This document shows positions 1-64,000 of a stretch of DNA of 64,000 nucleotides, one piece after another; position 1 is the stretch's first letter, and each line of letters starts with the position of its first letter. Origin of the DNA: Octopus sinensis (Eukaryota); NCBI RefSeq assembly GCF_006345805.1, contig NC_043015.1:26908001-26972000 (forward strand). The letters run 5' to 3'. The position numbers were made by a program, and so were the translations under genes. A model generated the notes under the pieces. It saw only the letters and a program-made list of their open reading frames with translations, ran no database searches and was not told the origin of the DNA.

Positions 1-207
1 CCAAACCGTTGCGTATTTGACTCCCCGTGCGATGTATTTAACGGCTGGCATATAGTCTGCCAGCTCGTTCACAATAGTGGCCTTTGGAAAGACAGCTATG
101 GTGTTGAGCGACTTTGAATAAGTCCTCAACACCACGGTCTTGTCCTCTAGCTCCTTCAGGTATCTTTTGGGAGGTGTTAACTCCCATATGGTAAATTCCT
201 TTGCCAT
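1..207 (-). CDS. N-terminal 69 aa of ORF1 (gag-like) of element A, open to the window edge
   Basis: Manual translation MAKEFTIWELTPPKRYLKELEDKTVVLRTYSKSLNTIAVFPK...; 62 of 70 positions identical to the 5303-6493 protein. Confidence 0.85.
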   Translation of the reverse strand, partial: MAKEFTIWELTPPKRYLKELEDKTVVLRTYSKSLNTIAVFPKATIVNELADYMPAVKYIARGVKYATVW

Positions 208-767
208 AACAAAAGTTTAAAACAGTTCAAAGTAACAAAATAAAATAGAAAAAAAAGGAGAATAAAAACAGAACAGAAGGGAAGAAACAAAATTCGAAAC
301 GGCAGTTCAAAAGAGTTTTTTAAAATAAAAATAGCAGAAGAGAGTTCAAAATCCAGGCAAAGCAATTAATTTTTTTTTTCTTTTTTCCCGGCCAAAAAGG
401 TATTCCAGGCCACTGGTAATCCACTTGTGAAAATAATCCTTGGTACTCCGTTGGTAAATCCGAAGACAAAGGCAATTACACACGTTGATTTTTGAGGTGG
501 GGCTACGCCTCCTCAAAAAACACAATTCTCACTACAAAGTGAGTCTTTATACTCGACTACAGGCAGGAAAAATGTCCGGAGCAGAGTGAAGTCTATTACC
601 TGCTAAAAAATATTAAATGCTAGAAAACATTAAATGCAAGGCAATAAACCTCACTAAGCCCCCAAAAATACAAAACGCCTACCTGTAGTCGAGTCAAAAG
701 TTCAACAATTCACGTTGAAACACGTGACAACTGGAGCAGCAAAAAACCACGTCTGAACACGTCAGAG
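1..767 (-). mobile_element. Tx1-clade element A: 5' UTR and start of ORF1; close relative of ORF1-only element C; runs off the left edge
   Basis: 5' UTR and ORF start align with 6287-6993; ends at target-site copy 768-782; GACGTGGTTTT motif near the 5' end. Confidence 0.85.
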
Positions 768-782
768 GTTAGCGAGCTACTT
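768..782. repeat. Target-site duplication copy GTTAGCGAGCTACTT between elements A and B
   Basis: Matches 4997-5011, 6994-7008, 52357-52371 and 54407-54421. Confidence 0.85.
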
Positions 783-1013
783 TATTTCATATAATTTGCC
801 ATTTAGGCATTTACAAAGAGGGGACAAACAAGGACAGACAAATATAAAGGGTGAAGTAGCTTAACACAGTTAAAATTTTCGAATGAAATTACGGATAAGA
901 TTATAAACAATGAGTTTTACGAAGACAATGTTTAAAAATATTATTAATGATCATGTCGAAGGACGGACACCCAGCCATCCGGGTAGAACCTTTACTTTCT
1001 GATCTGGTCACAC

Positions 1014-3165
1014 TTACCTGGTGCCAAACATACCCAACTTGCATGCCACAAACATATCTCGTGACAGACACCTCTTCTCCAGCCTGATTTTGCTACTGAG
1101 GTGGTAACTAAAAAAGTTAATCAACCGCTGGCCGGAGACAAAGGTGCCTGTCACTATAACTTTCGTACGCGTCTTCCATACTGTTTCTTTCAGTATGGCT
1201 ACTACACAGAAAAAACAAGCCTTTCTTTTCCTGTTAAGGAAAGGAGGCGGCGCAATCTCGATGATAGACTCAGCTGATAGATGTACTCTTCCCATCACTG
1301 ACAATAGTTGTTCAGCAAAAGCTATCAGTCCCGATAACTCCGGACACTCCACGAATGCGTGCAAGACGGTCTCCCTATCCTGCTCACATCGCGGACATGT
1401 CGGCGAGACGGCACTACCGTGCCTTGACAGCTTGTCGCGAACAGGTAAAGCCGCACGGAAACACTGCCAGGCCAGGGATTTCTGGTAATTATCCACATAC
1501 CCCGGCCCGAACGTCCTCCGGAACAGGTTGACCAACTGATTTTCATCGTAGCCCAAGGTCTCCCCCAAGGCGTCTTCGGACTTAACCTCCACTAACCCGC
1601 TATAGAAATCCGTGGTGGAACTCCTGTTGCCGGCGTTGCCCACCCGAGAGAGTAGCTGGAGCGCCTAACGGCACTCCAAATGCCATTCACTCAGTTTAGG
1701 TCTCCGCTTGATCCATGCACCGATGACCGTTAGGGATGTTAACTGGGGAAGGTAGAACCGGACGTGCGGTGACCACACCTGCTCTCCATCCAGGTAAAGC
1801 CAGAGGTGCCTCAACCTTAACGCGAGTTTTCGCATCCTCAGCCAAGGCATCCCTAGCCCACCCTTTAGCGGTTTCTGGCAGCAGACAGAGCGCTTTACAA
1901 GTGGCTTCCTCCTTTCCATAAAAATCGGAAAAGGATTCTCTCCAACTTGTTCAGCCACAATCGGGGCAAGGCACCACGGTCAGACGGTAGGTGATTACTG
2001 ATGCTATAAACATCTGCACCACCTCCGCCTTCCCTAGCAGGGATAACGCCCGCCCAGACCAGGTCTGGGTTAGAGCGGTCACCTTGTTGGCCACCTCACT
2101 CCAATTTTTCTCAATCTGGAGGTCTGGCTCGAACCAGACTCCGAGCAGCTTAACAGGACCTTCCGTCCAACGCCCTACGACGTTATTGGACGGCATCGGC
2201 TTGCCCCTCCAGGTGCCGAGTTGCAAACCGACCGACTTGTCCTTGTTAACCTTTGCTCCTGCCACCGCCTCGTAGCTTTTGATGGCCTCTTCCACCACTG
2301 GAAGCTGGCCTTCGTCTGCCACGATGATGGAGGTGTCATCCGCATACGCCGTAGCTCCTCTTCCACACCATAGATCATGCGGCGCGCCCCCTAGTGCCTC
2401 CAACTTCCGCAGCAAAGGCTCAAGAGTCAATACGTATAGGAGCGAGGACAGGGGACACCCTTGACGAACTGAACGCTCGATCGTGAACGGCTTCGAAAAG
2501 AAACCGTTCACCTTGACTAGAACTGTGGACAACTAAAACTAGACCTATCTCTAGTTCTTATCACTATCCTGTCTAGATAAGACTTGAACCTTCCGTCGCC
2601 ACTCATCCAGGTCCACTCTGGGACGTTCGGATGGTCAAGTCTGTAACGATCTGCCAGCTGAAACCGCTTAAGCAGATCCACGAGACGTGAGTTCACTTTC
2701 CTATAGATCGAGCCAACGCTATCGATGTGTACGTCAACGATAGCATTAAAGTCCCCTAATATCACTAAAGTCTTCGACGTCACGAGAAAGCCCTCTAGGC
2801 GCCGATAAAAATCAGTTTGGAAACAAGGTGCATAGAGTCCGATCAACCTGAAGGACTTACTGCTGTATGTCACATCAAGGACGACCAGCCCACCTTCTGG
2901 GTCTACATAGACTGTACTTGTCTGCAGAGCCAAGTCTTTACGGATCAGTACCACTACAGACCCCTCGCCCTCCGGTCTGGCCAGGAGACATGATTTTCTC
3001 GTAGCCATTCAGGAGAGGCGAGAAGGTTTGTAGGCTGTCCAGCTTGGTCTCTGTAGCAACCATCACATGTATATCATGTGATCTGATGTCGTCGAGGAAA
3101 CAAGCCTGCTTCCACTTCGAACTCAGACCACGCACATTTAAACAACAAAGGTTAAGAGAAGCCAT
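1014..3165 (-). pseudogene. ORF2 (APE endonuclease-RT-zinc finger), frameshifted, with a large internal deletion
   Basis: MASLNLCCLNVRGL, VATETK, LGDFN, SYLDRI (EN); VRQGCPLS, AYADD (RT); KGGLG; CPRC-x8-H-x4-C; split over five ORFs. Confidence 0.93.
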
Positions 3166-3442
3166 TACAAAAAGTAAAAGTTCTACTTACATTTCGTTGG
3201 AGAGGTTGGGGCCGACCTCACCACACATTGGTGGGCCCCTTCTTTTTCCTCCTTCTTCAGATAGTCCGGCAAGTTCGCGATATGCCGGATGGCGTTTGGT
3301 TGTCTGTCTTTTAATTGTTTGAACGTTGTTTCCGCGATCCACGCACATCTCTCGTTTCGATCTTTGTATTTGTTGTACAGTCTTGCTGACTGATGCGGAA
3401 CCACAATATCGTTTATGTATTTGTTTTGTGTGTCGAATTCAA

Positions 3443-4594
3443 TTAATATGAGTTCATTTTTTTTGTCTTCTTTTTCTGGGCCAGTTGAGCGGGATTTTTT
3501 TTTCGTGTCTGTGGTGTGTCTTTGTTTTTATTATTTTTTGTAGGGGATGTGGACGGGGATGATGCACGAATTCTTTTACGAACTGTTGTAAATCCCCCCT
3601 CTGATACCTCCATGGTATCGTCTGGGGTAGCAATAGTTTGTTCAGTAGGCGCCGCAGTTTTTAAGGGGGTGGGAGGTTTTAATAATGTAGGGGTTTGTGA
3701 GTGCGAGGGCTGGGTTTTTTCTTCAGTTTGTTTTGGGGTTGGCACCGTAACAGCGGGAGTGGGATTTTTTGTTTTTGTAGGGGTAGGTGAGTTTGCAAGG
3801 GTGGGGATTTTTTTATTATCTGAGGGGCCTGGTGTCTGCGGTTTCTTTTGCTTGTCTGGACAGTCTACACGAATGTGGCCCTTTTTGCCGCAGGCGTAAC
3901 AGGTGGGTTTTCGGCCTTCGACTTGTACCCTGAGGGCCACGTTCTCGCCCACGAGCACCCTCTCAGGAAGGAGCTGCAGGTCCTCCGGTGTTCCTTGAAT
4001 TATTATATTAATGTCTCGCCCAGGCCAATATAGAGGGGCAGAGCATGTTACTTGTAGTATTTTAATTTTGTCCGTCCTTTTATATAACAGGGCGGCCACT
4101 ACCTCTACCGGATCTACTTCCGGCGGGGCTTCTGCAATCCTGACCCGGGACGTCCTGCGTCCCCTATAGCTTGGGAAAAGTACCACCTCCTTGGTTTTTA
4201 GGGGGTTCACAGAATGCCCGCGGGCCACCTCTTCCCCCGAGAAGCGGACATCCACAGTGTCATATGCCCGTCCCCTGGCGACGTACACAATGTCCTTCCA
4301 AATCGGGGACAGGCATTTCTCAATGGTGTTTTTTTCAAAGTGTTTGAACCTTCTGCTTTGTGGACAGAAGGTTTTAAACACTACGGTCCGCTTCTCGGTC
4401 TCCACGATACTGGCGGAGGGTGATATTTTAACATCACCACCCTCCTCTTTCATTCTTTTAAATAGCTCGACGAGCTGATTGACATTGATGTCAATGCTCT
4501 CGGTAGCCACTGCGGCTACCGCAGAAAATTTTTTACTACAGTTAACATTGCTCTCCTCAAGAGCACTATTTTCGTGAATAATCTCAATAGACAT
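3443..4594 (-). CDS. ORF1 nucleic-acid-binding protein with CCHC zinc knuckle (element B)
   Basis: Long open frame (first ATG at 4594); CYACGKKGHIRVDC; Pro/Thr/Lys-rich tail; 3183-3404 may be its frameshifted C-terminus. Confidence 0.85.
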   Translation of the reverse strand: MSIEIIHENSALEESNVNCSKKFSAVAAVATESIDINVNQLVELFKRMKEEGGDVKISPSASIVETEKRTVVFKTFCPQSRRFKHFEKNTIEKCLSPIWKDIVYVARGRAYDTVDVRFSGEEVARGHSVNPLKTKEVVLFPSYRGRRTSRVRIAEAPPEVDPVEVVAALLYKRTDKIKILQVTCSAPLYWPGRDINIIIQGTPEDLQLLPERVLVGENVALRVQVEGRKPTCYACGKKGHIRVDCPDKQKKPQTPGPSDNKKIPTLANSPTPTKTKNPTPAVTVPTPKQTEEKTQPSHSQTPTLLKPPTPLKTAAPTEQTIATPDDTMEVSEGGFTTVRKRIRASSPSTSPTKNNKNKDTPQTRKKNPAQLAQKKKTKKMNSY

Positions 4595-4996
4595 TATTCT
4601 GTTGAAATTAGATAACACAAAAATTACGAATATTGGTTTCCCACAAAACTGGGAAACCTATAGAAAGTTTTTCTTCCAAAGCAGTTCAATAAGTGGTAAA
4701 AAGCAGTTCAAAAAATGTCATTTCCCACCCCCATTCGGGGGAGGGGCACGTAAATAGTCTGGCAAGACTATATATAGTCACGTAGATAAAAAAAAGCCAC
4801 AATGGCTAACAGTTCAACAGTAACAAATTATCCAATTATTCCCCGGTAAAACCAGAGAACAAGACAGTTCAACAACGTTCAAAAACAAATTTTCAGTAGT
4901 AAAATTCAACAATTAACAACACAGCAAAACTCTTACCGGGAAGAAAACGCGTCCAAACCGTAGTAAGGTAAGCAAAGTCACTCTTCAGTCAGTGAG

Positions 4997-5011
4997 GTAA
5001 GCGAGCTACTT
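4997..5011. repeat. Target-site duplication copy GTAAGCGAGCTACTT between elements B and C
   Basis: One mismatch to the copies at 52357 and 54407. Confidence 0.88.
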
Positions 5012-6993
5012 TATTTCAACAATTTTGCCACTAGGGCAGCACACAGAGTAGCTACGGGCTGGACAAAGACATTAATGGATGATGGTGGTGGTGGATGAAG
5101 ATGATGGGAGAAGTCAAAAAGCGCCCGCCGACTCTTGCTTCTCTAAAACAATGTTCTTTTTTTTTCCAATAATTTTACAAAATTTCCAAAATTTTACAAA
5201 AATTCAAAAATTTCAAAACAAATTCCAAATTTTACAATTTACAATTTCAAAAGTTTTTCCAGAGGCAATAAACCTCTATCGCAATATAACCCAAATACAG
5301 GTTCACGTTACCTGACCGATGAACGCTCTTGCTTTAATGACGCAATCGTTCTTCGTCAGGCCCCCGCATATAGGTATAACTTGCAAGAGATCCTCCGGGA
5401 AATAATTCTCGATCCTGCACATATCATTTTCGAGTAGGACCTCCGCAGCCAGCTGCGAAGGCCACTCGGGATACTCCATGCAGGACCGAAGTCCCGCCCA
5501 TTGGTTTCTCTTCCTCATCTTACCTATTTCATTCTCTAGTGTACCTCCTTTGTGGAAGAGGACCACATAATATTTCTCCGGCCCCACAACCGCCGGAGGA
5601 CACATGGGAGACGCCGTCTGCGTGTTACAATCCGCTGGCGGCGTCCCGTTTCTTTTCTTTCTTTTTTTCTTTTTACCCTGGACCACGGGAGGTTGAGGTT
5701 CCGGCGTTGCACACGCCGGGTCCACTCTTTCTACCGTAGCTTCCGGGTCTTCTAGTGGGTCACCATTGTTTCCCACTTTTCGTTTTCTTGTTGAGGAAGC
5801 CACCGCTTCCTCGTTCTGTTTCTCTCCCTCCATTGGTGGGACAGGGAGAGGCTCTGATATTAACTTCTCCAGGATCCTACTCTGGTCCCTGGGGCAGTTC
5901 TTCTTAATGTGGCCGGTCTCCAAACACAGGTGACACTTGGGGGGACGTCCCTCAAGCATCACCGGATACTTGGACCCGGCCATCCTCAAAAAGTCCGGCA
6001 AAACCAGACTCTTGGCTGACTGGGTCCATAGAGTCAAAGTAGCCTTTGACCCCTCCCAATCAGCCGCAGGCTGCATTCTTACGTTCAGGATCTTGGCGCT
6101 ACCACCACTCAGACCCCGGCGGATAGAATCTTCCACCCACTCGGGCTCAAAGCCGGGTGGCAGGCCGCAGACCCATAATCTTATTAATTTTTCTCCCTTG
6201 TAGCTTGGGAGAAACAAAATCTCTTCGCCCTCAATGGGCTTGCTTGCGAAATTGCAAGCTGCTTTAGGGGAGTCAAAAAGCAACCAAATCGTTGCGTATT
6301 TGGCTCCCCGTTGAATGTATTTAACGGCTGGCATATAGTCTGCCAGCTCGTTCATAATAGTGGCTTTCGGAAAAACCATTATGGTGTTGAGTGACTTTGA
6401 ATACGTCCTCAACACCACGGTTTTGTCCTCCAGCTCCTTCAGGTAACCCTTCGGAGGTGTTAACTCCCATATGGTTAACTCCTTTTTTGCCATAACAAAA
6501 GTCCAATAAAAAACACAATGACAGAACAGAAAGACAGAGCAGAGAAAAGAACGAAGGAAGACAGTTCAAATAATGGCAACACTGTTCTGCAACTGGTAAT
6601 CCTCACGAAACAGGGTACTCCAGTTGCAGCACACTTGGTTCTCTGTGGTAAATCCAAGCACAATTGGTTCTCCGTGGTAAATCCAAGCGAACAAATTAAT
6701 TTTTGAGGAGGGCCTATGCCTCTCAAAACACACAATTCTCACTAAAAGGTGGGACAATAAATATGCCAACAGGCAGAACAAATACCTCCGAAGCAAAGTG
6801 AAGCCTGTTACGCGCAGAAAAGTGTTAACACTAATTAACATTAATGCCAAAAAGTATTAACGGCAAGCAACAAACCTCACTATGCTTCCAAAATATCCAA
6901 AATGTCCTACCTGTTTGCCGTAAATGTTCAATATTTCACGTTAACACGTGACATCTGAAGCAGCTCCAAAAAACACGTCTAACTCAGACGAAG
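5012..6993 (-). mobile_element. ORF1-only non-autonomous Tx1-derived element C (~1.98 kb)
   Basis: Single ORF, no EN/RT remnants; 3' terminus similar to element B; bounded by target copies. Confidence 0.88.
5303..6493 (-). CDS. Intact 396-aa ORF1-like protein with CCHC knuckle
   Basis: ATG start; LEGRPPKCHLCLETGHIKKNCP versus VEGRKPTCYACGKKGHIRVDCP in B; FLPSYKG versus LFPSYRG; basic KKKKRKKR stretch. Confidence 0.9.
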   Translation of the reverse strand: MAKKELTIWELTPPKGYLKELEDKTVVLRTYSKSLNTIMVFPKATIMNELADYMPAVKYIQRGAKYATIWLLFDSPKAACNFASKPIEGEEILFLPSYKGEKLIRLWVCGLPPGFEPEWVEDSIRRGLSGGSAKILNVRMQPAADWEGSKATLTLWTQSAKSLVLPDFLRMAGSKYPVMLEGRPPKCHLCLETGHIKKNCPRDQSRILEKLISEPLPVPPMEGEKQNEEAVASSTRKRKVGNNGDPLEDPEATVERVDPACATPEPQPPVVQGKKKKRKKRNGTPPADCNTQTASPMCPPAVVGPEKYYVVLFHKGGTLENEIGKMRKRNQWAGLRSCMEYPEWPSQLAAEVLLENDMCRIENYFPEDLLQVIPICGGLTKNDCVIKARAFIGQVT

Positions 6994-7032
6994 GTGAGAA
7001 AGCTACTTAGCACACAGCCACTCCTGCGCCTA
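6994..7032 (-). mobile_element. 5' head of tRNA-derived SINE (family 1), including the last target-site copy
   Basis: Reverse complement TAGGCGCAGGAGTGGCTGTGTGCTAAGTAGCTTTCTCAC; matches 37554-37590 (+) and 54407-54446 (-); box A-like TGGCTGTGTG. Confidence 0.85.
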
Positions 7033-18175: not shown

Positions 18176-19636
18176 AAGGAAATGAGTGGAGTCTCCTTAT
18201 GAGCTCATAATGATACATCTAGTCATGGTGTCACAATAAAAACACTGGTAATAATTGGCAACCTAATAATCGCTACCTCATATGAGTGGCAATGAAAAAA
18301 AATATTGTGAATAACTGTGGTAATGAAACTGAAGCCAATGATGGTGACAGTGTTGCACCCTGTAGGCTCAGAGATTTTGGTCCGGCTCCAGCCTGTCGAT
18401 ACCCAGAAAGGGACCACCACACACGGTGTAGATGGAACAAACAAATTAGTGCTGTGGCCATGGAATGTTACTACCTGAACAACTCGGTAGATGAAAATGT
18501 ATGATCATTGGAGAGAAAAGGGATTGTTTCATCTCACCGAACAGAGACTATATGATCAAGCTAGAGTAATTAGAAAAAATGTTGGTTCACAGTAGAGCTC
18601 GAAACTATCAAAACACGGGTCATGGACAATAGCACCATAGATAAGAATGAAAATGCAGTTCTTACTAATAAGAGTAATCTCATAGCACAGGAAAACAACA
18701 TAGCACGGTATGTAAAAAATGACACAGAACCGCTTATATTAGAAGTGGGAACGTCAGGTTTGTGCAGACAAAGCACCATACAAGAAATTGAAAACGAATG
18801 AAACTGAAAATAGGTGAGTAAAGAAAAGAATGCATGGTCAATTTCATAGGGATGTTGAAGATAAGACGGACAGAGAAAAAAGATGGCTGTGGATGACTAA
18901 AAGTGATGATTAAAAGATGACTAAAAACCGGAAACAGAGGCTCTAATCTGTGCTGCCCAAGAGCAAGTACTAAGAACAAACTACATAAAATACAGAACAG
19001 ACAACACAGTAGAAAGTGCTAAGTGCAGAATCCCGAGATAAAACGGTGAAACCGTATGGCATATTACCAGCCAATGTACGCCAATATCGCCAGGCTTGTC
19101 CATTGGACACTTTGCTACAAGTATGGACTTGGCAGATCAAAAAATTGGTACGGACCACAAACCCGAAGTCATCATCGAATATGATAATGGAAAGATCCTG
19201 TGGTATTTTATGATTCAGTGCGATCAAGAGATTGGGAATAGGAAGCCGGACGTAATCTTAATTGAGAAAGAAAACCAACTATGCTGGACATAGACATAGC
19301 ATGCCCAGCAGACAACAAGGTATGCGATAATGAAGAAAGAAAAGTCGAGAGATGTGACAGGTTAGCCTGGGAAGTTAAGCATTTGTGGTCGATGAAAAAG
19401 ATAGCAGTAGTACCAATAATTGTCGGAGCCCTGGGGACAGTAAGCAAAAATCTTGAGAAGTACGTGGGACAAATATGGGCTGCAATAAGGCAGGAGCACT
19501 TGCAGAAAACAGCACTGCTTGGAAACTCTCGAATACTCCGGAAGGTGCTCGAAAAATAAGAGGTGTTACCTTAGTTCACTCATAGTGAACAGCTGACACC
19601 GTAGTACATCTCCAGCGTAAGAAGCTATGCAAAGGC
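18174..19636 (+). mobile_element. R4/Dong-clade non-LTR element, RT region deleted, inserted in (TAA)n
   Basis: N-terminal AMECYY / WREKG / LTEQRL.DQ.RVI; C-terminal HGQF, PETEALICAAQEQ, degenerate zinc knuckle, RKPD..DIACP..VVPIIVGALG (RLE); (TAA)n on both sides. Confidence 0.88.
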
Positions 19637-19703
<67 letters not shown>

Positions 19704-28050: not shown

Positions 28051-28301
28051 AGTCTGCCAGCTAAATAACTACAAACATATACATACATATATAGGAGTAT
28101 TTAAGTAGGTGAATGAATTATCCTAGTATGGACAATTCGGTTAACCGATACCCGGGTAGCAAATTCACGTCGGAAAACACGGTTGAAGCTACATGCCAGG
28201 GGCAGAAATCACGTGTTTTCGTGTGGAAATTTGTGTGTTTTTTTAACAATAAATAAGTGAAAGAATGGAGTCGAACGACGATTTTAACAAAATTCCTTTA
28301 T

Positions 28302-28382
28302 TCTCGACATATGTTTCGAAGACTGCATATTCTTAATTCCGAAGGAATAAAGGGTGCATTATGCCGCCTTCTCATCAGGAAA
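28302..28382 (-). ncRNA. Type I hammerhead ribozyme motif, left arm
   Basis: Reverse complement of the 28450-28530 motif; core intact. Confidence 0.8.
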
Positions 28383-28449
28383 GACAAGGAACTTAGACAA
28401 GTCATCTAAAAGTTTTTGTTCGTCATGATGCTGACATAGGTTCCTTGTC

Positions 28450-28530
28450 TTTCCTGATGAGAAGGCGGCATAATGCACCCTATATTCCTTCGGAATTAAG
28501 AATATGCAGTCTTCGAAACATATGTCGAGA
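28450..28530 (+). ncRNA. Type I hammerhead ribozyme motif with extended stem II
   Basis: tttc-CTGATGA-gaaggcggcata...tatgcagtcttc-GAAAC-ATAT-GTC-gaga; predicted cut after 28526. Confidence 0.82.
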
Positions 28531-28577
28531 ATACAGGAATTTTGTTAAAATCGTCGTTCGACTCCATTCTTTCACTT

Positions 28578-28614
<37 letters not shown>

Positions 28615-33579: not shown

Positions 33580-33851
33580 CAACAATTGAGGGTAAAATTA
33601 ATTAATTAATCAATTTCACCAAGTATTCAGTATGCCATTTAAGGCGAATTAAAATTATTACATTATATAAAAGGGCTTAGTAAAATAAATTACTTTGCCG
33701 CATACTGAACTCATTAGAACTAGCAGCTAAAAAAACTTTTTTAAAACTATTTCTAATACTTAAAGAAAACCTCTCTCATATAGTGTTTGCTCAATTCAAC
33801 TCACGCAAATATGGGGGTAGAGACATTAAAAAATCAAGTGCAAAGGTTATT

Positions 33852-33903
33852 TGAGAACGTACGTTTCAAGATTAGTCAACACGACATTTCTATCATCAGC
33901 TCA
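33852..33903 (-). ncRNA. Type I hammerhead motif
   Basis: Reverse complement of 34474-34525. Confidence 0.7.
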
Positions 33904-34473
33904 GAACTCCCTGGTTTGGATTTGAAAACACTGAAAGTGGGAGCATACCCTCTCGGCCTCCTCTCGCTTCCGAAGATCTGCTCGTAACTAACAGTGCCAA
34001 CAAACCCAAAAATGCAAGCGAAGAATTTCTGCTCTCCCCTTTCCACCAGCGTGGGTTAAAAAAGTTAAAAAAGTTTTTAAAAAGTTTTTTTAGCTGCTAG
34101 TTCTAATGAGTTCAGTATGCGGCAAAGTAATTTATTTTACTAAGCCCTTTTATATAATGTAATAATTTGAATTCGCCTTAAATGGTCCCTTTGCATACTG
34201 AATACTTGGTGAAATTGATTAATTAATTAATTTTACCCTCAATTGTTGAAATTATAATTCATCTCTCTCTATATAATGCCGCGGACTTTACCGAAAAAAT
34301 CATAGTGTTTACTGATTTTAACCCACGCTGGTGGAAAGGGGAGAGCAGAAATTCTTCGCTTGCATTTTTGGGTTTGTTGGCACTGTTAGTTACGAGCAGA
34401 TCTTCGGAAGCGAGAGGAGGCCGAGAGGGTATGCTCCCACTTTCAGTGTTTTCAAATCCAAACCAGGGAGTTC

Positions 34474-34525
34474 TGAGCTGATGATAGAAATGTCGTGTTG
34501 ACTAATCTTGAAACGTACGTTCTCA
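34474..34525 (+). ncRNA. Type I hammerhead motif
   Basis: tgag-CTGATGA-taga..gtc..gac..tctt-GAAAC-GTAC-GTT-ctca; palindromic AACGTACGTT. Confidence 0.7.
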
Positions 34526-34716
34526 AATACCTTTGCACTTGATTTTTTAATGTCTCTACCCCCATATTTGCGTGAGTTGAATTGAGCAAACACTATATGA
34601 GAGAGGTTTTCTTTAAGTATTAGAAATAGTTTTAAAAAAGTTTTTTTAGCTGCTAGTTCTAATGAGTTCAGTATGCGGCAAAGTAATTTATTTTACTAAG
34701 CCCTTTTATATAATGT

Positions 34717-34760
<44 letters not shown>

Positions 34761-41678: not shown

Positions 41679-41752
<74 letters not shown>

Positions 41753-42872
41753 GCCTTTGCACTGCTTCTAACGCTGGAGATGTACTACGGTATCAGCTGT
41801 TCACTACCAGTGAACTAAGGTAACACCTCTTATTTTTCGAGCACCTTCCCGAGCATTCGAGCGGTTCCATGCAGTGCTGTTTCTGCAAGTGATCCACCCT
41901 TATTGCAGCCCCTATTTATTCCATGTACTTCTCAATAGTTTTACTCACTGTTCCCAGGGCTCCGACAATTATTGGTACTACTTCAACCTTTCTCAGCGAT
42001 CACAACTGCTTAACCTCCCAAGTTAATCTGTCGTATCTATTGACTTGTCTTTCTTCCTTATCGCATACCTTGTTGTCAGCTGGGCATTGCTTTGTTTCTC
42101 AACTAAGACTATGTCTGGCTTCGTATTCTCTATCTCATGGTCGCACTGAATCATAAAATCCCACAGGATCTTTGCATTATCATTTTCGATGATACCATCG
42201 GGTTTGTGGTCGTACCAATTTTTTTGTTTTGTCAAGTCCATACTTGTTGCAAAGTGTCCAATGAACAAGCCTGGTTATATTGTCGTGGCGACTCTTATAT
42301 TCCTTCTAGGATAGTGGCGTACATTGGCTGGTAATATGCCATACGGTTTCACCATTTCATCTACAAATTCTGCACTTATCACTTTCTGGTGTGTTGTCTA
42401 TTCTGTATTTTATGTAGTTTGTAAAGAATAAAAAGTTTTGATTGGTACAACAATGCACTATAATACAGAAAATGAGCTATATATCTGTTGTAATTGAGTC
42501 ATCCATAATCTGATATGACATTTCGGAATAATATTCTTTCTTCAGATATTCTTAGATGTAGTCGCTGCTATAATCGGTTTTCTAATGGCTTCTCTTTTTT
42601 TGTGTGTAAGCATCTCAGCAGTGGTCTCACGATGCTCTTTCCGGAATTCTTCATGAGAAGTGTGTGAGGTCGGCCATGTCTCAATCTCGTGTGTGCTGGT
42701 ACATCCGTAGCGCTGCTTTTAAGTTCTAAGTTCTAAGTTTTGTAGTTTGATCTTAACGCTTGCTGTTGGACAGCACAGATTATAGCCTCTGTTTCCGGTT
42801 TTAAATCACTTTTAGTCATCCACAGCCATCTTTTTCCTCTGTCTGTCTTATCTTCAACAGTTCTATGAATGT
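41753..42872 (-). mobile_element. R4/Dong 3' portion (same family as 18174-19636), interrupted by an insertion
   Basis: Reverse-complement match to ~18840-19636; (TAA)n tail at 41679-41752. Confidence 0.88.
42422..42740 (+). mobile_element. 319-bp nested retroposon fragment with (TAAGTTC)n tail and 9-bp TSD
   Basis: TGTAGTTTG at 42413-42421 and 42741-42749. Confidence 0.65.
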
Positions 42873-52228: not shown

Positions 52229-52371
52229 TACGACGGTCTTCTTTCAGTTTCCGTCTACCAAATCTACCCACAAGGCTTTGGTCGGTCCGAGGCTATAGTA
52301 GGAGAAACTTGCCAAAGGTGCCACGCAGTAGGACTGATCCCAGAACCATGTGGTTGGTAAGCAAGCTACTT
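52229..52371 (-). mobile_element. SINE family 1, 3' part (box B and body), including TSD 52357-52371
   Basis: Reverse strand AAGTAGCTTGCTTACCAACCACATGGTTCTGGGATCAGTCC...GGAAACTGAAAGAAGACCGTCG. Confidence 0.88.
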
Positions 52372-54406
52372 TATTTCATAATATTCGTCATGTAGACAGT
52401 ACAAAGATTGTGTAGCTTTGCGGGCCGGACAAACACATTAATGAATGAAATTGAAATAAAATGAATAAATGAGAGACGAAACCCAACACTCATGATTGGA
52501 TTTTTCTCGAAAACATATTTTCTTTTTTTTTTAAATCATAATGAGGTTTCAAACCTCTTACAAGAAGGAGGCACTAAAACCTCTTACTTAACACGTTTGT
52601 TTTAATACACACAAATGATGTAATAAACCACTACAAATAATACAATAAGATGAGGTTTCAAACCCTCTAACGAGGCCTTTTCGCTTCCTACTCATTGATA
52701 TATCCATCGATATATTCCTCATTATTTTCAATGCCGCTTGAGTTCCTGTATCCTTCCATTTCACATGCCTCACTCATGTAGGACATGTAAGTCGTGTAAG
52801 GGCCACCCGGCCATATGCGACACTCTTTCCCAAATCCTTTAAGCCTTTCTCACAAGGGAAACCTTATGACCTCCACAGCTATCTGCGGAGGCCATTCAGG
52901 ACCTCGTGTGAATGACATATCTACTATCTCTTTATGTTCTTCTACTATTTTTCCACCTCCACACCCTTGTAGAAAAAGATAATTAATTCATCATCTTTAA
53001 AAGTGGGGGTCGTTTCTTCCACCGCGGTGACACAACTTCGGGACATGCAGACGGCACATCATCTCCCCGCTGCGATGACCCGTTCTTCTTTCTTTTTTTC
53101 TCTTTTCTTCCTGACTTCGGGAGAGTGGAGCTCTTCCGCTTTGTCCGGAGTCTCTCCCCCACCTCCCGAAGTCTTAGGGTCCTTCGGCAGGCAACTATTG
53201 TTACCCGCCTACTTCCTTTTTTCACATCCACCTCTCCCTTTGACCGGGTAGGGGAGGTGACAGTTCCGGGTCCTGAGAGCAGTTCTTTTTAATGTGGCCT
53301 GGCTGAAGGCACGAGTGGCACTTGGGGGGACGTCCCTCAAGTATCGCCGAATACCTGCAGCCAGCCATTTAAAAAAATCTGGAAAAACCAGATCTGTTGC
53401 GGCCGTCGGGGTCTACAGGGTCAAAATCGCTTTTGACCCTTCCCAATCGAACGCTGGCAATACCCTTACATTTAAGAGCCTGGACCCGCTATCCCCCAGT
53501 CCCCGTCGGATGGTATCTTCAATCCAACCCGCGTCGGTGTCTGGGGGTAACCTACATACCCAGGCTCTTATTAATTTTCTCCCGCACTACGACGAGACGA
53601 ACAGAATTTTGTTGCACGCTAATGGCTGACTCGCAAATGTTTGAGCCTTTTCCCGGTCGTCAAACAGCAACCATACGGTTTCATGTTTGACACCTCGGGA
53701 TATGTATTTCACTGAGGACAAATAGTCTTTCGGTTCATTTTCTATAACTGGTTTTGGGAAGACGGTGATGGAATCAAGAACTTTAGAATAAGTTCTAACC
53801 ACCACCGTCCTCTCCTCCATATCTGTTAACCACTGCTTAGATGGGTTAATTTCCCACTCTAAGACAGAGTTCTTCTTTTTAAGTTCCTTCTCTGCCATGT
53901 CCCAAAAAACAGTTAAAAAGTAGTTCAAAAATCAGTCCGCAAAAAAATTAAAACCGAATAAAAATAGAATTAAAACAAAATAAAAGAGAAGGAAAGGAAA
54001 CTGAAGTTCAAATAATGAAAAGAATGAACCAAAATTTAGAAAGAAAGAAAAAATAGAAGGAGAAAATAAAAGAAAAACCTCACAAATAGAACAGACAGGG
54101 AATCCTTTGTATAATACTCCAACAGGTAATCCAGTAGTGTCGGTTATTCTTGTACTCCAGGTAAATTTCGGCTTTTTCTAGTGAGATACGCCCACTAGAA
54201 TTTACAAATTATTTGGCGAAAAAAAGCCACACCAAAAATTCTCAATTCCCCGTTATGGTGATGAGAACACAATATTTTTGCTCGCTATAGCGAGCCATAA
54301 TTGACAATTTTTCTTTTTGTTCTTTTTTCTATTCACGGAGCCAAAACTCACGTCTTCTCACTGTAACAGTCCAGACCAACTAGTGTTGCATTCTGGGTAA
54401 CCGGAA
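52372..54406 (-). mobile_element. ORF1-only Tx1-derived element D (2035 bp) inserted in the SINE head
   Basis: Perfect 15-bp TSD GTAAGCAAGCTACTT; ORF homologous to C; shared 3' end. Confidence 0.9.
52780..53898 (-). pseudogene. Frameshifted ORF1 of element D
   Basis: MAEKEL..EERTVVVRTYSK..VFPK; DWEGSKA; EGRPPKCHSCLQPGHIKKNC; PEWPPQIAVEV resembles PEWPSQLAAEV in C. Confidence 0.85.
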
Positions 54407-54446
54407 GTAAGCAAGCTACTTAATACACTGCCACTTCTGCACCTAT
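54407..54446 (-). mobile_element. SINE family 1, 5' head, including TSD 54407-54421
   Basis: Reverse strand TAGGTGCAGAAGTGGCAGTGTATTAAGTAGCTTGCTTAC. Confidence 0.85.
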
Positions 54447-61023: not shown

Positions 61024-64000
61024 TGGCTCGGCTTCGCGAACGAAGATCAGGAAGTCTGTCCACGTAGCGTGCATGCACGTTCATGACTGACAAGTCCAAT
61101 ATAGGAAAGGCAGGTCAGTGAGCAGTGTCCACAGACGAAGGTAACATCCGGTGTGGTGTCAGAGGCGGCTCGTACCTTCCTCCTGCGTCTCTTGTCTTTA
61201 AGCGCGTTTCTTCTTTGTTCCTCAAACTTGCTGACTGCGTTGAAGATCGTGTGGCACCAGACATCACAGTCTGCAGCCAGGCCTGACCAGCATTGGTGGT
61301 TAATATGACATGCAGTTAGAGACTGCTTGAGGCAGTCTTTGTAGCGCTTCCTCGGTGGCCGGTGGAGAGTTCACGGTTCTCCATTCTGGAGACATGCCCA
61401 GCCCATCGGAGGTGTGACTTCAGTAGCATGGCTTCAATGCTGGGGATCTTGGCCCACCCAAAGAATTCAATGTATGTTGAGGATGGTGCTGACACATCGT
61501 TGGTGGAAGCGCTCGAGGAGACGGATGTGACTGCAGTAAGTGATCCAGGTCTCTGAGCCATAGAGAAGAGTGGTGAGAACCACGGCCCTGTAGACACTGA
61601 TCTTTGTTTTGTTCTTCAGGCTATTATTGTGCCAAACACGTTTGTACATTCTGCCAAAGGACCTATTTGCCTTAGAGAGTCTATTTTCAATTTCTTTGTC
61701 GATTCTTGCATCGAATGAGATGATGCAGCCCAGGTATGTAAACTGCTGAGTTGATTTCAGTTCGGTACCGCAGATAGTGATGTGGGGTGGGCGGTAATCC
61801 TCTTGGAGTGTAGGTTGGTGAAGTACCTCCGTCTTCTTGAGGCTGACCTCCAGGCCAAGGAGCCTCGAGGCGTCTGCAAAGCAGGGCGTAATGCGCTGCA
61901 GAGCTCGCTCTGCTTGGGCGACAAGGATAGCGTCGTCTGCGAAGAGAAGGTCTCGAATCAGCCTCTCCTGGGTCTTGGTGTGGGCTTGGAGGCGCCGTAG
62001 ATTGAAGAGGCTGCCATCCAGACGATACCTAGCATACACCCCATCCTCATCCTCCATATCTTCAGTTGCATGCTTGATCATCATGCTGAAGAAGATGCTG
62101 AAGAGAGTCGGTGCCAGGACACAACCCTGCTTCATGTCGTTGGAGATGGGGAAGGGCTCCGACAGGTCACCATTGAGTCTGACCTAACCACGCTGATTCT
62201 CGTGCAGCAGGATCACCATCTGTAGAAACTTGGTGGGACAGCCAAGTCGTTCCAGGATGAGCCATAGTCCTGTCCTGCTCACTGTGTCAAATGCTTTTGT
62301 GAGGTCGAGAAAAGTAGCATAGAGTCCCCTGTTTTGTTCTCGGCACTTCTCCTGGAGTTGGCGCAGGACGAACAACCATATTCGTTGTGCCTTTGTTGGC
62401 TCTGAATCCACACTGGCTCCCGGGGAGGTTTTCTTCAGCAATGGTTGGTACTAGCCTGTTGAACAGGATCCTGGCAAGTTCTTTGCCGGCGATGGAGAGT
62501 AGGGTGATTCCCCGGTAGTTGGAGCAGTCAGACTTTTCGCCCTTGTTCTTGTACAGGGTTATGATGACGGCGTCACGAAGATCCCGTGGCAGCTTGCTCT
62601 GCTACCAGCAGCAGACAAGAAAATCATGGTGCTTGTCATGGAGCATCGGACCTCCATTCTTCCCGATTTCTGGTGGGATGCCGTCAACTCCTGCTGCTTT
62701 GCGACTCTTGAATTGTCCCATGGCTTCAATCGTTTCTTTGAGGGTGGGTGGTTCGTTGAGCTCCTCTTTGAGTGGAAGGTGAGGAATGCGAAGGATGCCA
62801 GCGTCCTGTACGGTACGGTTAGCATTGAAGAGGCTTTGGAAGTGCTCGGACCAGCGAGCGAGAATGGAGGTGTTATTGATGAGAAGGTCCTGTCTATCTG
62901 AACTGCGCAGGGGACTCTGGACCAGGTGGGTGGGAGCTTACACTGCTTTCAGAGCCTCATAGAAGCCTCTATAGTCTCCGAGGTCAGCGCACAGCTGGGT
63001 TCTCCACGCCAAGTGGTCCCGGCACACGTTCTGTATTTCTCTGAGTTTTCGCTGTAGAGTGCTGCATGTGCGTCGAAAGGTAGTTTTCTTTACAGGACAG
63101 GCTGGTTGTGCGAGGTGGGCCTGATGAGCTGCCCTCTTCCTTGCTAGTAATTCCTGGATCTCCTTGTCATTTTCATCGAACCAGTCCTTGTTTTTCTTCT
63201 TTGTGTTCCCGAGAACTTCCATAGATGTCTTAAGCATGGCTGATTTCAGGTTCTCCCACAAGGTGTCTGGGGTGGTGTCATCAGTGCAGGGGGATTCGTC
63301 TAGTCTTTGCTGCAGGTTTGCTTGAAACTTGATTTTCAGTTCCTCCCGGAACAAGCTGTCGACATCGAGTTTCTTTGCGTGGTTACCTTTCTTCTTGGGT
63401 TTGGGTTTGAACTGCAGTTTGAGCTTGCAGCAAACAAGGATATGGTCGGTGTGGCACTCGTGTGTAGAACGTCTTTCAGGTCCCGCTGGCGTACAAGCAC
63501 ATAGTCACGTAGATGCCAATGTTTGGACTGGGGATGCACCAAGTTGTTTTTAGACGGTCTTTCTGTTGGAAGATTGTGTTGGTAATAGCAAATCGGTGCT
63601 CTGTGCAGAACTCGAGCAGGAGGTGCCCGTTGTCATTACAGCCACCAATGACGTGTCTTCCAAAGACTCCTTTCCAAGCCTCCGAGTCCCTCCCAACTCT
63701 TGCGTTGAAGTCGCCAAGGATCAGGACCTTGTCGTTTGCAGGGGTGTTATTCAAGCGTCTGCACAGATCAAAATAGCAGCTGCCTTTGTCCACAGGATCT
63801 GCCAGTAGAGTTGGAGCATAAACACTGAAGTGCGTGAGATGTTGTTTGCTCTCCAGTGGTAGGCGCATGGATATGATGCGGTCGAGTGGCCCGTGGCTAA
63901 CATTTCCAGTTTGAAGGTGATTTTGTAGGACTCACGTTTTTCAGATGATGGTTTTCCGGACCAGAAGAGGGTGTAGCCAGCGTCACGTTCTTTGAAGCTG
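61021..64000 (-). mobile_element. RTE-clade LINE, degenerate; 5' part beyond the window
   Basis: SVYAPT, LGDFNARVG (EN); FLDLTKAFDTV, KQGCVLAPTLF, LLFADD, FTYLG, LLYGSETW, LRWAGHV; many frameshifts. Confidence 0.95.

Follow-up and report, generated by a model that had tools for sequence, protein, structure and literature searches.

The window, a 64,000-nucleotide stretch of the Octopus sinensis genome, contains a retrotransposon copy, element C, whose only gene encodes an ORF1-like protein. It raises two questions: whether such a copy is a single accident of deletion or a member of a family that lives without ORF2, and which ORF2 protein (ORF2p) would then move it. We find that C is a full-length member of an ORF1-only family that has many copies and has lost ORF2, and not a single deletion. 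In addition, we consider it highly probable that this family, which inserts at one SINE site, likely uses its own ORF1p together with ORF2p borrowed from the autonomous family B.

Positions 1-7030 of the window hold a head-to-tail array inside one short repeat, on the reverse strand, like element D below, in the order SINE head, C, B, A and SINE body. The 5′ 22 nt of the SINE, upstream of the array (7009..7030), were recognised by sequence and by the same flank at most related loci. They are tRNA-like, with an A-box-like TGGCTGTGTG; neither ARAGORN nor Rfam returned a match for the tRNA identity of this head, and its A and B boxes were assigned by eye. The left junction of C (6993..7008, 16 nt) combines an 8-9 nt target duplication with a target-like heptamer common to sister copies, and the identical AAGTAGCTTTCTCACC start occurs in L003, L007 and L012. 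The initial annotation had placed C at 5012 to 6993. Its layout of 5′ UTR, ORF1 and 3′ UTR stands, while the boundary moves by one base: 6993 is the last base of the left junction, and C, an ORF1-only non-LTR retrotransposon, spans 5012..6992 (1981 bp). The 5′ UTR (6494..6992, 499 nt) is followed by the ORF1 of 396 aa (5303..6493, ATG at 6493, stop at 5303-5305), intact as described, and by a 3′ UTR confirmed at 291 nt, whose tail (5012..5038) consists of a TGCC-N5-GGCA hairpin (5026-5038) and an AAATA end common to B.

The target sequence is duplicated again at the C/B junction (4996..5011) and at the B/A junction (767..782), both recognised by sequence. Between them lies element B (783..4995, hairpin at 797-809), a copy of an autonomous family that we take to be Tx1-like from its ORF1 architecture and targeting, both of them Tx1 traits. 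The window copy, initially read as autonomous, is defective: its ORF1 runs from about 4591 to 3446, its ORF2 (3165-1014) has lost about 1.2 kb internally near 2509-2519 and carries frameshifts, and it therefore cannot supply ORF2p. Element A enters the window with its 5′ part (1..766) and ends ~1.23 kb to the left, where the SINE 3′ body follows. Reading the neighbouring stretch L079 showed it to be a complete, older C-type copy of 2011 bp including its left junction, also ORF1-only, as had been supposed from its 5′ end. The shared junction variant and the nearest-relative identities (83% for A, 98% for B and 97% for C) fit an array in which A was inserted first, B next and C last, every new copy entering the left junction of the one before.

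Element D (52372..54406, 2035 bp) is a separate insertion into another copy of the same SINE. It lies between perfect 15-bp target duplications, one on the left (54407..54421, with the SINE head at about 54422-54445) and one on the right (52357..52371, with the SINE body next), and its tail carries the hairpin variant TGTC..GAC(A/G) (52386-52398). D is a decayed copy of an older C-type subfamily of its own, with copies 83-88% alike and about 2.05 kb long; its ORF1 is broken and shares 47% identity with the ORF1 of C over the core. Run on the window, the repeat finder reported microsatellites only. Positions 61467-63931 (reverse strand) contain broken endonuclease- and RT-like frames of another LINE, presumably RTE-like; 33635-34722 and 28254-28578 are near-perfect long inverted repeats (99-100% and 98%), and 18976-19701 forms a distant inverted pair of ~700 bp with 41688-42422.

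C and D had been described as lacking any trace of EN or RT, and a tblastn search with three intact ORF2 proteins of this genome against C, D, a copy of lineage E (see below) and an M-subfamily copy returned nothing better than E 0.45. Searching the 2.7-Gb genome with the DNA of C gave 2,508 candidates. The best 40 of these were scored: 11 other loci are 93-97% identical to C over most of its length, and many more, at 87-90%, align with C no further upstream than the start of the ORF, their 5′ UTR being a different one; this segment is swapped among subfamilies. The protein of C gave 150 scored matches of 65-100% identity, and its named relatives are Octopus proteins only. We delimited 200 elements, at loci chosen mostly by similarity and not as a random sample: 125 C-type, 27 E-type, 24 with a B-type ORF1 and 24 without a readable ORF1. 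ORF2 is present in 24/24 of those with a B-type ORF1, in 0/125 C-type and 0/27 E-type elements, and in 0/40 of the most divergent C-type loci taken with ~3 kb downstream, the C-type absence being scored in the Octopus sinensis genome alone. The uniform size of ~2 kb and the target duplications that had been anticipated are both found: 112 of the 125 C-type copies measure 1.96-2.30 kb, and full-length copies are dispersed, with common ends and 15-16 bp duplications.

These data bear on two alternatives, namely that each copy arose as a separate, one-off deletion of an autonomous element, or that we are dealing with an ORF1 gene domesticated by the host. Deletions of this kind do exist in the B lineage (window B, L181, L248 and L412), and the Atlas look-alikes of C ORF1p are CCHC proteins that include a ZCCHC3-like cluster. 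However, the B-lineage deletions keep pieces of ORF2 and differ in their breakpoints, whereas the C-type copies keep none and share one layout over dS >1; they are also dispersed, with their own target duplications, and decay individually, an ORF of at least 340 aa being kept in 24/78. We regard the probability of either alternative as negligible.

Divergence gives some measure of how long the family has lasted. C subfamilies are young, with copies up to 97% alike, and D copies lie ~6-8% from their source. Read with the calibration in the accessible text of a study of octopus repeats, in which JC distances of 0.065 and 0.09 correspond to about 18 and 25 My (PMC13282606), this divergence suggests roughly 15-25 My of life without ORF2 for the D lineage. 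A sample of 86 representatives of other species holds just two clear C-type cases: P0001, with the full core, and P0030, with a piece of 46 aa. Three runs that were guessed to be RNA have contigs over C, B and the flank beyond the array alike, and run X19, which carries the label of another organism, also has contigs over C. Some further features of individual copies were recorded. At L001-L030 and L123 the 5′ UTRs are swapped, an identical 5′ end being found on ORF1s only 65% alike, and some of these 5′ UTRs contain internal repeats of about 200 bp. At L218, 93 bp that start like C and end like an autonomous element are inserted between perfect duplications, possibly the result of a template switch. 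In L028, at oriented position about 1555, a point change in ORF1 creates the target-like word AAAGTAGCT, and no insertion was seen there.

To evaluate constraint on ORF1, dN/dS was calculated (NG86) over aa 1-201 of natural intact copies, a choice that removes stops and not missense changes. For C the values are 0.20 (0.11-0.32) against L092, 0.25 against L148 (dS 0.69) and 0.20 against L127 (dS 1.15), and the core lies at 0.15-0.27 in 8/8 between-subfamily pairs with dS >0.29. D compared with C and M gives 0.10-0.11, including 0.11 for D304 against C at a dS of about 2.2, near saturation. Between subfamilies the ratio is therefore far below 1 (0.10-0.27), as would be expected from the long-lived lineage initially proposed, and C-type ORF1 coding capacity is maintained by purifying selection. 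Among sister copies (n=14 and 7), shared changes have a pN/pS of 0.09 and 0.11, and private changes 0.58 and 0.31, a difference that is expected if the source elements are selected and the inserted copies decay. Constraint is weaker on the C-terminal domain, where ratios between subfamilies are 0.30-0.69 and most intervals reach 1. Sister pairs with dS <0.1 have wide intervals and are mostly uninformative, and one E pair gave 0.66 (0.40-1.25). The autonomous control pair G235 and G236 has a dN/dS of 0.07, which indicates that the passenger ORF1 is somewhat relaxed.

The tails of C, D and B all end in a hairpin and AAATA, and the DNA similarity between the passengers and B is confined to the last ~40 nt, in which the 4-bp hairpin and AAATA lie. 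The target sequence AAG(T/A)AGCT follows all 110 intact 3′ ends (C 30/30, B 30/30, E 23/23, D 27/27), taken from 120 loci found by similarity. In B, C and E the stem of the hairpin reads TGCC/GGCA around a variable loop; 23/27 D tails have TGTC/GACA, and 7/13 readable tails of a third lineage have GGCC/GGCC. The hairpin is kept through two compensatory changes, each of them a single event. Across the genome, exact tails of the TGCC type number 1,405 (control 9) and D-type tail-target junctions 163, and the SINE, about 420 bp long, offers 55,098 exact empty sites (exact 29-mers). Among the first 30 of the 1,405 tails, 23 are C-type, 2 E-type and 5 autonomous, a passenger to autonomous count of 25:5 in which short copies were typed by their 3′ DNA. 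Subfamilies differ in the SINE subtype that they occupy (sampled at L141-L149 and L151-L180 versus L181-L210): some are almost confined to AAGAAGC and others to AAGTAGC, which reflects either age or a change in the preferred target.

Element C is thus not the only kind of passenger. Lineage E (L063:384-1884; L252, L257-L259) is 1.4-1.5 kb long and has the same tail and target. Intact copies of its ORF1 encode 400-408 aa, 36-40% like B and about 25-30% like C, with dN/dS of 0.15-0.37 in 4/7 pairs, the other 3 being uninformative. The third lineage (L159, L391-L410) is older, with copies of ~1.7 kb that are 72-84% alike and sit in AAGAAGC, the older SINE subtype; ORF2 was found on the strand of the element in 0/20 loci. 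The system contains at least three ORF1-only lineages that use one tail and site, and their differing architectures make independent origins plausible. The three-tier arrangement of SINE target, autonomous Tx1 and passenger that had been proposed is retained in its target and in the tail and site common to B and the passengers; it is modified in that there is more than one passenger type and that the local B is defective.

The usual length of family B is ~5.4 kb, with most of 18 fetched copies at 5.40-5.46 kb, and L071 has an intact ORF1 and a 1137-codon ORF2 frame. Pfam identifies an APE endonuclease, an RT and a zf-RVT in the ORF2 of B pieces, and the best solved relative of this protein is human L1 ORF2p (E 3e-65); searches for named Tx1 reference relatives of B returned none. 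B 3′ ends lie at the SINE site in 30/30, and older B-lineage copies with a B-like ORF1 (L248, L412) occupy the older SINE subtype, where the older passengers sit. Because the tail and the SINE site are common to the passengers and B, we infer that B-lineage ORF2p, acting in trans, is the likely engine.

Could the ORF2p come instead from another LINE, either the one that moves the SINE or one of the relatives F, G and H? Both F and G are young families in which intact copies of ORF2 exist, and the ORF1 of G, at 30-31% identity, is slightly nearer to that of C than the ORF1 of B is, at 27%. The ORF2 of F, G and H is 57-65% identical to that of B, but these families have other tails, without the hairpin, and other flanks, outside the SINE, whereas the passengers are strictly specific for the SINE site, and we judge a source of this kind very improbable. 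The two young autonomous relatives F (about 6.1 kb) and G (about 5.3 kb), sampled at L231-L239, have an intact ORF2, and no SINE target is evident for either.

The ORF1 protein of C is predicted to contain two tandem RRM domains (~aa 14-183, 5945..6454), followed by a CCHC zinc knuckle (aa 186-199, 5897..5938). The AlphaFold model of aa 1-206, with a mean pLDDT of 87.8, comprises two RRMs and the knuckle; its best Foldseek match is HuR RRM1-2 (E 2.2e-4), and VIA matches it to single RRMs with Z of 7-7.9. Pfam detects in C only a weak zf-CCHC (E 0.011, below cutoff), and all four ligands of the knuckle are kept in 18/18 aligned intact copies. A profile of C ORF1p searched against solved structures found no L1 ORF1p chain. 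The C-terminal alpha/beta domain (aa 305-396, 5306..5581) is conserved in C-type ORF1s and has a pLDDT of 59-82 in the full-length model, in which aa 1-304 are unusable (pLDDT <50). It has no detectable match to the ORF1 C-termini of B and G (hhalign probability <1%), and the fold search gave no Atlas and no Foldseek match, the best VIA hits (Z 4.8) being ferredoxin-like folds. C-type ORF1p also starts ~55-65 residues later than the ORF1p of B, E, F and G.

As had been noted from the window, the ORF1 of C is only distantly similar to that of B, with 26.7% identity over 195 aa. A tree of the core with 39 rows, built from segments of at least 150 aa, places its 25 C-type rows in a group of their own (100/100) on a long branch, 1.83 changes per site from all other ORF1s, the autonomous B, F, G, H and I among them. 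The AU test rejects none of the clades C+E (p 0.24), C+B (p 0.37) and E+B (p 0.15), the third lineage being outside this test.

One alternative is that C-type elements rely on an autonomous parent of their own, with a C-type ORF1 and an ORF2, that is rare, unsampled or extinct, B only sharing the niche. Such a parent would agree with the 27% identity to B ORF1, with a C+B clade that the AU test neither rejects nor shows, and with the D hairpin variant: in 30 loci with the GACA hairpin there is no ORF2-bearing family, and the 1/30 with ORF2 is a point-mutated B copy. The genome search, moreover, scores the best candidates only, and our survey of autonomous elements covered the best 150 endonuclease matches, down to 58% identity to B, with 20 fetched, and 120 pattern loci, a scope within which a rare autonomous C-type partner could possibly escape. 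Against this, the C subfamilies are so young that their partner must have been active recently, and every ORF2-bearing element with the hairpin-AAATA tail and a readable ORF1 has a B-like ORF1. We consider a separate parent improbable and retain family B as the likely partner.

The insertions themselves give information on the mechanism. Comparison of the two junction copies at 87 insertions shows two patterns. In one the match extends over 15-16 nt, local variants included; in the other it stops after 8-9 nt, and a target-like heptamer common to sister copies comes next. This suggests that some element RNAs may carry a few target-derived bases at their 5′ end. Head-to-tail arrays are over-represented: 28/110 3′ ends precede something other than the SINE body, nearly always a recognisable element start, compared with a site occupancy of at most 2.8%, and in less biased pattern samples the figure is about 8/105. 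In lineage E, 13/23 copies are directly upstream of another element. In one array (L316-L317, C7:10449000-10463500) at least 8 ORF1-only elements, drawn from several subfamilies, occupy a single SINE, and shared junction variants occur in runs.

This excess of arrays, together with E or C lying directly upstream of B at several loci, would also be expected if ORF1-only elements travelled mainly on read-through transcripts of B-containing arrays, with ORF2p acting in cis. At L311 and L312 an E + C-type pair, 98-99% alike, stands before different third elements, possibly a co-mobilised dimer, and this too would agree with read-through. However, most copies are solo between SINE halves (21/30 C and 24/27 D 3′ ends lead into the SINE body), so that priming on their own tail is needed, and many arrays contain no B. 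Read-through as the main route is, in our view, improbable.

With B-lineage ORF2p as the likely engine, we propose that an element would be transcribed from its own 5′ UTR and that its ORF1p, with two RRMs and a knuckle, would coat its own RNA in cis, for which reason ORF1 would stay under selection. The 3′ hairpin tail would be recognised by B-lineage ORF2p, whose endonuclease would cut the SINE just after the A-box-like motif and prime reverse transcription. The left junction would recreate the target, so that later insertions could stack upstream as head-to-tail arrays. A wider scenario is tentative and, on the whole, doubtful: the SINE-targeting Tx1-like niche may repeatedly breed protein-coding parasites as the Drosophila telomere does, with three independent losses of ORF2 and lineages that outnumber the autonomous element ~5:1. 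C-type ORF1p would then have been remodelled, losing an N-terminal segment and gaining its own C-terminal domain, to win ORF2p in trans, and stacking at occupied sites would unite passengers and engine.

This system bears on the question of why ORF1p has to be provided in cis. It offers three lineages, young intact copies, a candidate partner with an intact ORF2 copy, a 40-nt tail and a 16-bp target, so that ORF1p cis-preference, stringent tail recognition and target inheritance become testable by simple swaps. The accessible parts of the octopus repeat literature (PMC13282606, PMC4758252, PMC9115989) do not mention a SINE-targeting ORF1-only system, and we found no published Tx1-derived ORF1-only family or SINE-targeting Tx1, although consensus entries may exist in Repbase or Dfam. 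Precedents exist for every ingredient; the literature searched showed no system that unites a Tx1-like parent with a SINE target and several lineages of protein-coding passengers.

A close parallel in coding content is HAL1 (half-L1) of mammals, a non-autonomous element of the L1 group that, in the sections consulted, encodes ORF1p only, arose several times and long kept its coding capacity (PMC5753468, PMC3627910). The octopus elements resemble it in being ORF1p-only with a long-kept coding capacity, and differ in their Tx1-like parent and in a predicted RRM-RRM-CCHC ORF1p that is not of the mammalian L1 type. In addition, they insert at a defined sequence within a SINE, and what is recognised seems to be a structured tail and not poly(A), on which L1 depends. 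Ag-Sponge, described as a CR1-derived bipartite non-autonomous LINE, is likewise ORF1-only; it belongs to another clade, and target specificity is not mentioned in the portion of the source available, which lists ORF1-only LINE types from the Jockey, L1 and CR1 clades (PMC5786205).

In targeting and array formation the octopus elements resemble Drosophila HeT-A and other telomeric elements of the Jockey clade, which, as far as the accessible text describes them, are ORF1-only, targeted and arranged in head-to-tail arrays and need the ORF2 of families that share their niche (PMC13534243, PMC5786205). There, too, ORF1-only lineages give rise to new ORF1-only families, and ORF2 loss is repeated, according to the same partial text (PMC13534243). 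The two systems differ in clade and in target: instead of chromosome ends, the octopus elements use a SINE that is dispersed and provides no fewer than 55,098 exact empty sites, and they have no evident host role. These findings support the view that repeated loss of ORF2 goes with site specificity and array formation. Within the Tx1 clade, elements are reported, in the excerpts available, to target transposons (Tx1 in Tx1D, Tx1-Mar in Mariner-N4_AMi), with a passenger SINEU, about 16-bp duplications and insertions in tandem around a duplication (PMC4494074). The octopus system shares the target-specific Tx1 element, the non-autonomous passenger at the same target, the ~16-bp duplications and the tandem insertions; in contrast to SINEU, which is non-coding, its passengers encode a selected protein, and its target adds a SINE to the repeats targeted by Tx1-like elements.
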